A DNA stretch of 64,000 nt, taken from IMG/VR virus record IMGVR_UViG_3300031867_000027, positions 28,752 through 92,751 of that record, one strand, 5' to 3'. The translations under genes and the position numbers were made by a program. Positions 30,623 through 35,008 of this stretch are shown piece after piece. Position 1 is the stretch's first letter; the number at the start of each line of letters is the position of its first letter. The stretch comes from a virus. Lineage: Duplodnaviria > Caudoviricetes. The notes below the pieces were generated by a model. That model saw nothing but the letters and a program-made list of their open reading frames with translations. It was not told where the DNA came from and ran no database searches.

Positions 30623-30641
30623 CATTATTACAGGGAAGGTG

Positions 30642-32015
30642 ATGACAATGGGGCTTTTTAGTAAAGTCCAAATGGAACAGATAAACGCAGCCGCAAAGAA
30701 GTGTACGCAGGTCACTGAGCCTAAGAAGAAGAAAACCAGCGCAAAATTCATCAACTCAAAGGTAGATGCTATGTCTGCTAAGGTTATTGAGCACTTCAAA
30801 GACTCAACTGCGGAACTGATAACATCGGTAGACCAACTTCACGATTATATCACCAAAATGTGTGAAGCTGGGATAGGTGCTATAGATACCGAGACTACCG
30901 GCCTTGACAGAATACAGGATACTATTGTGGGTGTATCACTATATTATCCCTGTGGTGTTGAGTGCTACATTCCCATAAAGCATATCATTCCTATATTTGA
31001 AGAGCCATATAAGGATCAGCTTACATATGAGCAGGTCGGAATAGAATTACAAAGGTTAGTAGATAGTAAATGCAAACTTATATTTGCAAATGCGGACTTT
31101 GACCTTGCAATGATATTCAAAGACCTCAAGGTAGATCTGATTCCGGTATGCTTTTATGATGTTATTTTGGCGTGGCGTTGTATCAAAGAGAACGAGAAGG
31201 ATAATTCTCTTAAAGGTCTGTATACAAAGTATGTTGTCAAGGGTGCTATAGATAGGATGAAGTTCTCAGATTTCTTTACACCCGAATTGTTCCCATACTG
31301 CAAACCCTCAGTTGCAAAGCTCTATGCCGCTGCTGATGCTAAGTATACATATGATCTTTTTGTATGGCAGTTACCTTATCTTCAGAAAGACAATCCTAAG
31401 TGTCAGAAGCATCATCTTGAAGCGATTGCTGACCTTGTATGGGGGTTGGAACTGCCGCTTATAGCAGTTACACAGAATATGCATCGGAGAGGTGTGTATC
31501 TGGAATCATCGGTAGCAGATATGCTTAATGTGAAGTATAAGGCTTTGCTTGCTAAAGAACAGAGCGATATACAGGATAGCTTGAAGTCATATATGGATGA
31601 TACTCAGTATTATACATCTGTGAAATGTCCATTTGGCGACTATAGCAACTTCAACCCTAATAGCACTCAACACGTTCAGTGGGTTGTTTATGATTTGCTG
31701 AAACTTGACAGTAAGGGTAATGGCAGAAGCACCGATAAGGACGTATTAGGTCAGTTTAGTACACCTATAATCAAGCAGATACTTCATTATCGTAGTTTAG
31801 TTACCCTTATAGGTACATTTGTAGAAAAGCTGCCAATTGTTGCTGATTCAACACCTGATCACAAAATTCACTGTGAATTTAAGCAGGCAGGAACCGATAC
31901 CGGCCGATATTCTTCACGGGATCCTAATATGCAGAACATACCTTCTCGACAAGGCGATATCCGTAGAATGTTTAGAGCAACACCGGGATATGTAATGATG
32001 TCCTCAGACTACAGT
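30642..32015 (+). CDS. polA: family A DNA polymerase exon 1 (3'-5' exonuclease, up to motif A DYS)
   Basis: DTETTG, TGRYSSRDPNMQNIP, IRRMF, SSDYS. Confidence 0.92.
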
Positions 32016-32413
32016 TGACTGTTGGCGGTAGTCTTTAATCTAAACTCGGCTAATTCGATGAAAGCCTTGGGATTGTTTATTGGTTCACGCCCAAGTGTCA
32101 ATATCGAGCAAGGCAGAGTAAAATCTGCCGTGTGGAGAGACTATCAAAAGCTATAAATTCTCCGTTTAGAGAAATCTATAAATACTGCCGATACGCATAT
32201 TGGACGTATGTATGCGGTAGGGAGAGTTGAGAATAAGGCAGTAGCGATACTGCACGAAGCAAGTAGAGTACAGCTCATATTGAGTTAGTGTATAGATGAT
32301 ATTAGTCTATTGTAAATCTATTAAATGGAAACACCGAGTACATTGTGTGAGTGGTAACAGCTTTACAGTGTAAAGAGTTAGTCCGATCCCTATGGTAACA
32401 TAGGAAATCAACG

Positions 32414-32484
32414 ATAACCTGTTGGATAATAACTTGTTGAATAATAACCTGTTGTGAGTTATCTTGTTGCATTTAACCTTATAT
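32414..32484 (+). repeat. 15-bp-period imperfect repeat (ATAACCTGTTG) x4 plus late promoter motif
   Basis: Units at 32414, 32429, 32444, 32459; AACCTTATAT at 32475. Confidence 0.85.
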
Positions 32485-32504
32485 GTATATTGAGGTGATG
32501 CTAT

Positions 32505-33239
32505 ATGGTTATATATACCATAACAAACAAGATTAACGGAAAAAAGTATGTAGGTCGTACAGTGATGTCTATAAATTTACGTATAGATGGTCACAGAGCC
32601 GCATACAATCAGGGTGTACGCTATAAGTTGTATGATGCTGTGCGAGAAGCAGGTGGTTGGTATAACTTTGAGGTTGAAGTTATTGATTCATCTGCTAAAA
32701 CCGAAGAAGAGTTGAATGCACTTGAAGCGTATTACATTGAGAAGTTTGACTCCATTAACAATGGATATAATATGATTCCGGGTGGAGATTATAACCCAAT
32801 GGATTACCCTGAGATTTCTGAAAAGCACGATGCAAAAATGCGAACACCCAAAGTACGAAATCAGATATCTGAATCTATGACAAATTATCGTAAGGATCAT
32901 CCGTTCGATTATAAGCATAGGGTGGGTATTTCTGAGAATAAACGGAGTTTTTATGCATCAGAAGCAGGTCAGGCACTTTTAGCAAAACAAAAAGCTGATC
33001 ATGATGCTAAAAGGAAGATATTGCAGGAACAAGGCAAGAAACCTTCAAATAAACGCAGCGTGTATTGTGTAGATGAATCCGGCAATATAGTTGCAAAATT
33101 TCAATCTATGCAGGAAGCTGCTCGATGGTGGGATTCGATTAATAAAGTATGTACAACCTTAGATGGCTATACCTCTAAGATTAGGCGTTCTTGTCAACAG
33201 AATAAGTATTATCACGGGTTAAAATGGCAATACGAATAA
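32505..33239 (+). CDS. intron-encoded GIY-YIG homing endonuclease
   Basis: VIYTITNKINGKKYVG..R...E..YI...NGYN; NUMOD-like C-terminus. Confidence 0.9.
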   Translation: MVIYTITNKINGKKYVGRTVMSINLRIDGHRAAYNQGVRYKLYDAVREAGGWYNFEVEVIDSSAKTEEELNALEAYYIEKFDSINNGYNMIPGGDYNPMDYPEISEKHDAKMRTPKVRNQISESMTNYRKDHPFDYKHRVGISENKRSFYASEAGQALLAKQKADHDAKRKILQEQGKKPSNKRSVYCVDESGNIVAKFQSMQEAARWWDSINKVCTTLDGYTSKIRRSCQQNKYYHGLKWQYE

Positions 33240-33263
33240 TATTGTTAATTGATTTAATCAGAA

Positions 33264-33470
33264 CAACAAGAACCTAAACTAACAGCATATGTATCGCAAG
33301 AACCCAAAATGATAGATACATTCAAGAAGGGTAAGGATATATATGCTACCATTGGATCTATTGCATTCAATGTTCCCTATGAGGACTGTTTAGAGTTTCA
33401 TCCGGTAACACATGAGTATCAGCCAGAGGGTAAACTCAGGAGAACAAGAAGCAAACCAATGGTATTGGGT
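33264..33470 (+). CDS. polA: polA exon 2
   Basis: QQEPKLTAYVS...KDIYA...RTRSKPMVLG (motif B first half), 69 codons. Confidence 0.88.
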
Positions 33471-33979
33471 AGACCAAGTGTTTATGCCCCCTCAGTAGGT
33501 AGTCTTACAATAATAACTGCTGAGTGAAAATTTTGTGAACCCCATTACTCAGGGGTGTACAGTAGTATTACTGTGCTAACAGGGAAGCCTTATTATTAAG
33601 TTAAAGGTAATCCTGTGCCAAGTCTTTGAATCTCATATTTTTAATGAGGAGGTGATATATAATGGCTAAGACATTTAGAGTTTATATTATAACCAATACG
33701 GTTAATGATATGAAATATGTCGGTGTTACAAGTTAATCATTAAAAGAGCGATTTAGACAACATAAAGCGAGTGCTATGCTTAGATGTTCTAAAAGTCTTA
33801 TACATCAAGCCAGTAGTACACATAAGATTTGTAAGGCATATGGTTATACTTGGAGATTCAAAGAAAGGTCAATCGACTAATTATTAGGGTAGAAGATGAG
33901 TTGCTATCCGAAGCGCAAAAAACCCTTGTAAGACGGGGTTATGATATAGTCAGTGCCATTAGAAATAATGGAATAAACG
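33471..33979 (+). mobile_element. group I intron 2 in polA motif B
   Basis: P1 GGGT/GCCC; IGS GTTTAT pairs exon ATAAAC; P7 GACTA/TAGTC; terminal G; splicing restores VLG-INYG. Confidence 0.92.
33662..33880 (+). pseudogene. degenerate GIY-YIG endonuclease in intron 2
   Basis: GAGGAGGTG RBS; VYIITNTVNDMKYVGVTS*SLKERF.QH joined to YGYTWRF; TAA at 33734-33736. Confidence 0.8.
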
Positions 33980-35008
33980 ATAAACTATGGGATGCAAGGT
34001 AAAGCCCTTGGTGAGAAGATATTCGGAGATGATGATTCCATATCTGAGGAAGAAAAGACTAAGCAGGCTAATAAGGTCTTTGATGCTGTAATGGCAGGAT
34101 TTCCTGTGCTCAAACAAGCTATTGCAAATTGCAAAGCAAGAGCAAAGCAGATTGGCTATACCGAAACTATTCTCGGTAGACGTAGACATTTTCCTAACTT
34201 GCGAATGCCTCGCTTTGAGTTCAAAGCAGAGGATGGGTATATCAATCCGGATATAAACCCTCTTGATCCTACTACGCTTGATGCTAAAGATGATATTCCT
34301 GAGCGAATTCAGAAAGCCTTGTATAAGGAATTAGTATCTTATAAATACAATGGTCAGGTATACAAGCGAATCAGACAGTTGCACGAACAGGAACACATAA
34401 AGGTGTTTAATAATTCATCTAAGATAGCAGAGTCTGAGAGAGAATCTTGGAATGCCGTAATACAAGGATCAGCGGCCGATCTTACAAAGATGGCTATGCT
34501 TAGACTTGAAACAGATCCGGAGTGGCAGGAGATAGGTGGTAGGCTTATACTTCCTGTTCACGATGAGCTTATAGTTGAGGTACCCTTTGAGCATAGGGAG
34601 AAGGGTGCTGAGATATTAAAACGCTCAATGGAACAAGCCGGAAGTTTCTTACCATTCCCCATTAGCTGTGATATAGAAATGACCTTTAGATGGTATGGTT
34701 TAGAGGTAGATGATATACTGTCTTTCGATGCACCAACATCTATGGATTTTGATAATATGTCAGAATCAAATATCAAGTGGTTACAGAGTCGTTTATTTGA
34801 GCAGGGATATGTTATGCCTGTGTTTAAGAATGAGGATGGCTCTAAGCCTATAGGTATCGCTGCTAAGGGTATCAACGGCAAGCTGTCAGATGAACTTAAA
34901 TCTGCCTATGCAGATTATATACAGAAGTATGGTCTGACTTCTGATGAGCAGTTTATTCATCATATAGATACACTTGTATGTACAGGTATAGCTGAAAAAC
35001 TGCAATAA
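33980..35008 (+). CDS. polA: polA exon 3
   Basis: INYG, ETILGRRR, NAVIQGSAAD, VHDEL. Confidence 0.92.
   Translation: MNYGMQGKALGEKIFGDDDSISEEEKTKQANKVFDAVMAGFPVLKQAIANCKARAKQIGYTETILGRRRHFPNLRMPRFEFKAEDGYINPDINPLDPTTLDAKDDIPERIQKALYKELVSYKYNGQVYKRIRQLHEQEHIKVFNNSSKIAESERESWNAVIQGSAADLTKMAMLRLETDPEWQEIGGRLILPVHDELIVEVPFEHREKGAEILKRSMEQAGSFLPFPISCDIEMTFRWYGLEVDDILSFDAPTSMDFDNMSESNIKWLQSRLFEQGYVMPVFKNEDGSKPIGIAAKGINGKLSDELKSAYADYIQKYGLTSDEQFIHHIDTLVCTGIAEKLQ

Follow-up and report, generated by a model that had tools for sequence, protein, structure and literature searches.

A polA group I intron that appears to end in adenosine in a phage lineage

The 3'-terminal guanosine of group I introns (omega-G) is treated as universal because one pocket binds both the GTP of the first splicing step and omega-G in the second. 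In the Tetrahymena intron, exon ligation suffers severely when omega-G becomes A without a matching switch of the pocket to A-U, and engineered Tetrahymena omega-A (G414A) ribozymes with such an A-U swap of the guanosine site were reportedly described by Michel in 1989 and by Been and Perrotta in 1991. The intron described here also ends in A, but where the engineered ribozymes need the P7 G-C pair to become A-U, the natural lineage keeps G-C in all six sequences aligned. For the ribozymes that have been studied, one paper describes a single pocket in which omega G and the P7 G-C pair form a base triple (PMC2588497, citing Michel et al.). A literature search for a natural precedent with a non-G omega nucleotide returned nothing relevant, although such an absence is weak evidence.

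In the T4 nrdB (sunY) intron, Michel et al. are said to have found in 1992 that long-range pairings and P10 return the 3' junction, which is hundreds of nucleotides away, to the core. This intron and the one described here share an IA-type core followed by an endonuclease ORF, a remote 3' junction and an in-frame stop at the start. However, the T4 intron ends in G, whereas the present intron ends in A, has polA as its host gene and encodes a different GIY-YIG protein. The polymerase introns of SPO1, SP82, Bastille, T7-like PhiI/W31, Pf-WMP3 and phiL7 are self-splicing IA2 introns, with P7.1/P7.2 but no P2, a stop codon at the start, a sequestered endonuclease ribosome-binding site and a 4-bp P10 (PMC3428280, PMC11878797). 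They resemble the present intron in their placement in conserved parts of family A polymerases, in P7.1/P7.2, in the stop codon at the start, in the sequestered ribosome-binding site and in the short P10. In contrast, they encode HNH nicking endonucleases rather than a GIY-YIG protein and, as described for Pf-WMP3, have a typical 3' guanosine, whereas the present intron has an A end and interrupts motif A between its S and Q codons.

The intron was found in a 92.7-kb viral contig from IMG/VR, a metagenome assembly with an estimated completeness of 64%, of which a stretch of 64,000 nucleotides (the window) was studied. No close relative of the window was detected among GenBank phages by megablast. 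Positions 30639-35008 (+) contain a family A DNA polymerase gene (polA) in three pieces, with two group I introns between them (Table 1). The Pfam DNA_pol_A profile is covered from 28 to 160, 161 to 201 and 263 to 380 in exons 1, 2 and 3, respectively, and is gap-free across the exon junctions. A second polA was sought across the record and none was found, leaving just one. In an index of 5.8 billion proteins, no polA product of over 800 aa exceeds 66% identity to the omega-A clade, the best match being at 66%, and neither an intronless nor a spliced version from this clade was seen.

Table 1. Features of the interrupted polA gene, in window coordinates.
Feature	Coordinates	Strand	Description	Basis
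polA exon 1	30639..32015	+	3'-5' exonuclease and polymerase to motif A (...SSDYS)	Pfam PF01612, PF00476 (profile 28-160)
P1 hairpin	32007..32033	+	Exon GACUACAGU and intron UGA, paired with UUGGCGGUAGUC; 5' site after U32015 (U32015·G32025)	
Group I intron 1, IA-type	32016..33263	+	1248 nt; last nucleotide A33263	RF00028 and covarying fold; Pfam, tblastn and relatives for ends
P10 guide UGUUG	32020..32024	+	Pairs with CAACA 33264-33268; directly 5' of G32025	
P3-P6 region	32045..32133	+	P3 5' strand 32045-49; P4 32055-60/32102-07; P5 32064-71/32090-98; P6 32108-17/32124-33	Alignment, fold
L5 invariant GGUU	32082-85	+		
P7 5' strand	32137..32143	+	G-A(bulge)-G-A-C-U-A; bulged A32138; G32139-C32383 is the guanosine-binding pair	
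P7.1/P7.2 extension	32150..32329	+	About 180 nt between P7 and P3'; helices 7-14, several with compensatory changes	
P3 3' strand; P8	32334-38; 32339-52/32360-72	+		Rfam match, fold
P7 3' strand; J7/9	32379-84; 32385-87	+	UAGUCC; GAU	Rfam match, fold
P9	32389-32404	+	CCUAUG-GUAA-CAUAGG	Rfam match, fold
Long-range helix 5' strand	32405..32416	+	AAAUCAACGAUA; closes the ORF-bearing loop with 33240-33255	
Tandem heptamers	32418..32469	+	CCUGUUG/CUUGUUG/CCUGUUG/CUUGUUG; complementary to first 7 nt of exon 2, CAACAAG	
RBS-sequestering hairpin	32475..32497	+	AACCUU ... GAGGUG; kept in 6/6 sequences	Predicted
GIY-YIG homing endonuclease ORF	32505..33239	+	244 aa; 3' of P9	Pfam PF01541, 32.8 bits (threshold 22.6)
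Intron 1 3' tail	33240..33263	+	UAUUGUUAAUUGAUUU-AAUC-AGAA; closing-helix 3' strand 33240-55; AAUC 33256-59; G33261 at -3; omega A33263	
polA exon 2	33264..33470	+	QQEPKLTAY...PMVLG; first 5 nt are the P10 3' strand	Pfam, tblastn
Group I intron 2, canonical	33471..33979	+	5' site after U33470; ends G33979; decayed GIY-YIG remnant	Rfam, tblastn
polA exon 3	33980..35008	+		Pfam, tblastn

Exon 1 ends GAC UAC AGU (D-Y-S, with AGU at 32013-32015) and is followed by an in-frame UGA at 32016-32018; the 3' end of intron 1 reads ...UUGAUUUAAUCAGAA (33263), after which the exon continues CAA CAA GAA CCU. Exon 1 carries the DNA_pol_A match up to profile position 160, and from 33264 the match resumes with position 161. 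When the intronless polymerase of the relative L008 was used as a tblastn query, residues 6-458 aligned to 30636-32015 and residues 459-527 to 33264-33470, with neither gap nor overlap. The motif D[YF]S[QAG]QEP[KR], with an invariant Ser, is present in 66 of 66 relatives in which motif A is uninterrupted. Taken together, the Pfam boundary (160/161), the tblastn boundary (458/459) and the 66 intronless relatives lead to an expected protein junction of DYS↓QQEPK (the arrow marks a splice junction here and below). All combinations of 5' sites at 32014, 32015 and 32016 with in-frame 3' sites near 33258-33266 were checked by reading, and the sole G-terminated in-frame combination, U32016/G33261, gives AGU UAA CAA, which contains an in-frame stop. 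The reading frame, the Pfam profile, the 66 intronless relatives and P1 with its adjacent P10 therefore make A33263 the last intron base.

On this evidence, which comes from sequence comparison, AGU↓CAA can be taken with good confidence as the likely mature junction of intron 1, and there is a reasonable probability that the ribozyme produces it with an adenosine as the terminal base. The original prediction had arrived at the same 5' and 3' splice sites, in agreement with the frame, the profile, the tblastn boundary and the 66 relatives, and at a P10 between the internal guide sequence and exon CAACA. That pairing is borne out, since UGUUG at 32020-24 adjoins U32015·G32025 and pairs with 33264-68. 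Its further statements that P7 looks canonical and that the intron ends in A and not G also hold: the guanosine-binding pair is G-C in six of six sequences, and A33263 is common to six lineages.

The Rfam model RF00028 gives a full-length match at 31995-32405 (39.2 bits, E 1e-7), below the gathering threshold of 50 bits; the score is lowered by the P7.1/P7.2 insert of about 180 nt and by the remote 3' end. A second, partial Rfam group I match lies in the next polA gap. A canonical fold comprising P1, P3-P9 and P7.1/P7.2, with P7 as a pseudoknot, was scored on six aligned introns, because RNAalifold on its own wrongly joins the P3 5' strand to the P7 3' region. This fold has 111 pairs, and 98% of the 666 cells are standard pairs, compared with 31-43% in slid-partner controls. 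Compensatory changes are seen in 29 of the 111 pairs, which was matched in none of 500 shuffles, and 13 pairs are compensatory within the five omega-A sequences alone.

P1 (GACUAC-A-GUUGA, 32007-18, with UUGGC-G-GUAGUC, 32022-33) consists of 11 pairs that are paired in 98.5% of cells over the six sequences, including the U32015·G32025 wobble in all six, and is identical in the omega-G sister intron L174. P10 has 4-6 contiguous base pairs in all six lineages and uses the same register in L174. At exon position +3 this helix has A-U in the window, G·U in L169 and G-C in L171, a covariation which indicates that the guide tracks synonymous exon changes. Two P7 pairs other than G32139-C32383 swap compensatorily in L174. 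The intron has the P1 U·G, the P3-P9 core with its P3/P7 pseudoknot, the P7 G-C pair with a bulged A and the P10 of a group I intron; among the features assessed, only the terminal G is missing and only the Rfam gathering threshold is not reached. The extra P7.1/P7.2 helices are an IA hallmark, and the intron can be assigned to subgroup IA (IA2-like).

A change in the G pocket that might compensate for omega-A was sought in the aligned introns, and none specific to the omega-A lineage was detected. In J6/7, every omega-A intron has G at position 32135, where the omega-G relatives (L174, L175, L179) have U. This position also tracks the P4 pair 32058-32104 (A-U vs G-C), and so perhaps belongs to a P4 triple unrelated to omega.

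The unusual 3' end is not confined to the window. In about 35 independent contigs from six lineages, drawn from ENA and Logan assemblies with differing samples and assemblers, the intron ends CAGAA↓ or CAAAA↓ and is followed by CARCAR. The window and seven L162-type loci have AAUCAGAA↓CAACAAG, and the P0001 cluster, which has this L162-type end, is found on at least 24 contigs. The corresponding sequence is AAUCAGAA↓CAGCAGG in L169 and L170, AACCAGAA↓CAGCAGG in L171, AACCAGAA↓CAACAGG in L172 and L173, and AAUCAAAA↓CAACAGG in L195, which is represented by one 1-kb contig. Because L195 reads CAAAA↓, with no G at -3, that G appears to be dispensable. The A at the omega position is real and is not an assembly artefact; the original prediction would have been refuted by reads with G at 33263 or by an assembly error of 2 nt, and the independent contigs contradict both. 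A search of IMG/VR for the exact 3'-junction string gave no match. The clade is present in dozens of samples, and an in-frame stop directly follows exon 1 in all alleles.

The sister intron L174, from an NCBI MAG, has the canonical omega-G end UUUAACCG↓CAGCAAG, and three remoter introns at the same polA site (L175, L179 and L007) end ...ACAG↓. All four share with intron 1 of the window the insertion site, P1 and the P10 register. Their cores and GIY-YIG cassettes are homologous to those of intron 1, the cassettes with an identical 5' leader, but all four end in omega-G (...ACCG↓ or ...ACAG↓) where the window intron ends in A. This comparison indicates that the intron family is normally canonical and that one sub-lineage departs from it. 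Separately, L174 (L174:1-2027) and many polA relatives have an intein (PF14890) farther upstream, ending ...SHN↓TGR.

Within the omega-A genomes, exon 2 read from CAA has a pN/pS of 0.06-0.24 at a pS of 0.65-0.85, and the endonuclease has a pN/pS of about 0.1-0.2 at a pS of 0.47-0.8. By these values, purifying selection acts on both exon 2 and the endonuclease, and synonymous divergence is close to saturation. The ribozyme core is 83-93% identical, and neighbouring synonymous sites are 47-85% diverged. Long carriage together with selection on the ribozyme and on the downstream frame is hard to square with anything except accurate intron removal. The best reading of these data is that intron 1 is functional and vertically maintained, with omega-A in at least six related lineages.

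The ribozyme core lies entirely upstream of the endonuclease ORF. The predicted helix that closes the ORF-bearing loop (32405-32416/33240-33255) has a free energy of -7.6 kcal/mol in the window and -8 to -12 in other omega-A lineages, and is kept with differing sequences in each lineage, such as AAAUCAG/CUGAUUU in L172. Eight nucleotides (AAUCAGAA) connect it to exon 2. The AAUC (AAYC) of the tail may pair with the invariant GGUU of L5; this pairing is wobble-compatible in all sequences, without true covariation, and its distance to omega is 0, 3 or 6 nt. An alternative P9.0, formed from GAU of J7/9 and AUC of the tail, fails in the lineages with ACC. Between P9 and the ribosome-binding site of the endonuclease, each genome contains three or four heptamers of the form CYUGYUG, and every genome has one copy that fits the exon-2 variant found in that genome, with 6-7 of the 7 positions matching. 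These heptamers could tether the remote 3' exon at the RNA level, or they could be DNA operator mimics of the homing site involved in endonuclease autoregulation.

Homologues of the endonuclease in a large protein index have 94, 84, 82, 78, 78 and 62% identity, and all are in polA at the same place. An IMG/VR search with the endonuclease protein gave only relatives with at most 49% identity, and a scan of JGI metagenomes with the endonuclease alignment gave a single close match, L181, which is truncated. The predicted hairpin that pairs AACCUU with the Shine-Dalgarno GAGGUG in six of six sequences suggests that endonuclease translation is restrained in the precursor RNA. Homologous GIY-YIG cassettes with about 40% identity are found in L175 (2365-3480), L179 (2356-3494) and L007 (7025-8147), and share a 5' leader made up of a single heptamer and an AACCUU...GAGGUGAU hairpin, as in the window. 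In these introns, which occupy the same polA site, the cassette is in the P6 loop and not after P9, a difference which suggests that it moves as a module within the intron. The remnant in intron 2 comprises 24 codons of a GIY-YIG gene (MAKTFRVYIITNTVNDMKYVGVTS) followed by a stop. At the intron 2 site, an intact GIY-YIG/NUMOD3 gene of 252 aa is present in L162-type relatives, and L168 and L171 are without intron 2.

The explanation that we favour, and consider fairly probable, is a functional omega-A intron with the junction AGU↓CAA, in which ligation would proceed without a docked guanosine and the 3' site would be set mainly by P10 and other tethers. The first step would be ordinary, with GTP in the P7 G-C pocket attacking after U32015. 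P10 (UGUUG/CAACA) would align the phosphate before C33264 beside the 5' exon, and the long-range helix bracketing the endonuclease ORF would return the remote 3' end to the core. In the second step, the phosphate after A33263 would be attacked with no guanosine docked in the pocket; besides P10, the closing helix, the possible contact between tail and L5, and the exon-complementary heptamers may act as tethers. This step would probably be slower than in canonical introns. It is expected to be slow or assisted because omega-G-to-A mutants of model introns are said to ligate very poorly without a change in the pocket, and no compensating change was found.

Such an end would arise most simply by substitution of A for G, or by insertion of two nucleotides (AA) behind an ancestral ...CAG↓, and either event may have been tolerated because P10 already governed the choice of site. 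Among the options listed in the original prediction, this corresponds to a mixture of an omega-A intron and an unusual mode of 3' site selection, while the third option, a shifted splice pair, is left without support. If the explanation is correct, intron 1 is a natural case in an essential gene with an unchanged pocket, and lets the roles of omega-G and of P10 and tethers be tested, with L174 (terminal G) and L195 (no G at -3) as natural controls. An omega-A end also matters for annotation pipelines that demand a terminal G, and for ribozyme engineering.

It is possible, but unlikely, that AGU↓CAA is the correct junction and is reached by A-to-I editing of A33263, by a protein cofactor or maturase, or by RNA-repair cleavage and religation. 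All of the junction evidence fits such routes equally well, and the unchanged G-C pocket makes unaided ligation at omega-A chemically awkward; inosine at A33263, if that base were edited, can use the G pocket. However, no candidate factor has been identified, and the well-kept P10 and core suggest that the ribozyme itself acts. The GAAC context of A33263 also differs from the known bacterial TadA editing motif, which counts against editing.

Quite unlikely is the proposal that intron 1 no longer splices accurately, with the polymerase either assembled from separately made fragments or defective. Relatives with polA as two genes near this site, and the in-frame stop after exon 1 in all alleles, would be in keeping with it. 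Yet exon 2, as read in the sequence, has neither a start codon nor a ribosome-binding site and is nevertheless under strong purifying selection, compensatory changes keep the ribozyme core and P10 intact, and the break would fall inside catalytic motif A in a clade that is found in dozens of samples.

The same degree of scepticism, or slightly more, applies to a canonical splice one register over, using U32016·G32024, omega-G33261 and a P10 of AACA/UGUU, with the resulting UAA read through or bypassed, or the protein truncated. This is the sole combination that has both a U·G and a terminal G; its P10 has 4 bp in five of the sequences, and stop-initiated inserts are found at exactly this site in related phages. 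However, this P10 is broken in L171, L195 has no G at -3, and the omega-G sister L174, with its identical P1, must use the first U to maintain the frame. A hop from the Ser AGU would have no landing codon, S is followed directly by Q in the relatives without any additional residue, and stop-codon use in the window appears standard. When the window sequence was searched for a hop or frameshift that could rescue G-terminated registers, neither a matching landing codon nor a slippery site was found.

A shifted pair with the 5' site after A32013 and the 3' site after G33261, giving DYKQQEPK, is in frame and has a terminal G; this is the pair that the original prediction had given as 32013/33262 (DYKQQE). 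It is very improbable, as the 5' exon would end in an A that faces G32027, which is a mismatch, or U, neither a U·G nor a P10 is available in this register, the Ser that it removes is invariant in 66 of 66 relatives, and L195 does not have the G. A sequencing or assembly error at 33262-33263 might be suspected in a window that is one metagenome-assembled contig, but is of negligible probability, since at least 24 P0001-type contigs and four other lineages, taken from ENA and Logan and built with different assemblers, have the same 3' end.

In 16 IMG/VR contigs from remoter relatives (L064 and L196-L210), polA is divided into two genes just upstream of motif A (examples are L064:7028-7060 and L207:2571-5821). 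A free-standing GIY-YIG gene is usually located between the two halves, and in L207 it has 38% identity to the window endonuclease (E 2e-40). The N-terminal polA gene of L207 ends about 70 residues beyond ...MFIAS, and the stop of the endonuclease overlaps (ATGA) the start of a short ORF, M-KKLLARR-N-YVLMSSDYS, with a basic leader. After the Ser codon UCU of the split genes there is an insert of 6, 7, 9, 11, 15 or 16 nt that invariably opens with UAG or UAA and closes with UCA. Downstream of it, CAR CAR GAR CC... opens a frame of about 300 codons encoding the remaining polymerase. A covarying hairpin joins the insert to the exon before it (GUGACUWY with RWAGUCAC), and the position of the insert is the exact codon boundary at which intron 1 of the window is inserted.

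This arrangement looks like a bypass cassette of the T4 gene-60 type, in which the ribosome would hop from UCU to UCA. It has in common with T4 gene 39-mobA-gene 60 an endonuclease-split gene whose downstream piece opens with a short basic leader and contains an untranslatable gap; the gap is opened by a stop after the putative take-off codon, has a matching candidate landing codon at its end and contains a potential hairpin. However, the T4 gap is 50 nt long whereas the polA inserts have 6-16 nt, the codons UCU and UCA are synonymous rather than identical, and the gene concerned is polA. If this reading is true, the cassette would be a second, independent example of an endonuclease combined with a bypass besides T4 gene 60. 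Like intron 1, the insert would destroy the endonuclease's own target site.

The composite proposal has slightly better than an even chance of holding: that the clade ligates accurately at omega-A with a G-C pocket, P10 and tethers replacing omega-G recognition, and that the same endonuclease family also occurs free-standing, at an identical polA codon boundary, with a probably hopped insert of 6-16 nt. The polA gene of this phage group is a hotspot of introns, inteins, free-standing endonucleases and gene splitting. Finally, the N-terminal polA fragments have tails of about 70-80 aa (L064:6790-7030, L207:3935-4136) with the pattern …NSFTVDRWxEVxTxxGWxYAxxIxVGDxL…. These tails have no Pfam match and resemble the block-B region of Hint/intein domains, and might represent a split-intein remnant or an association domain.
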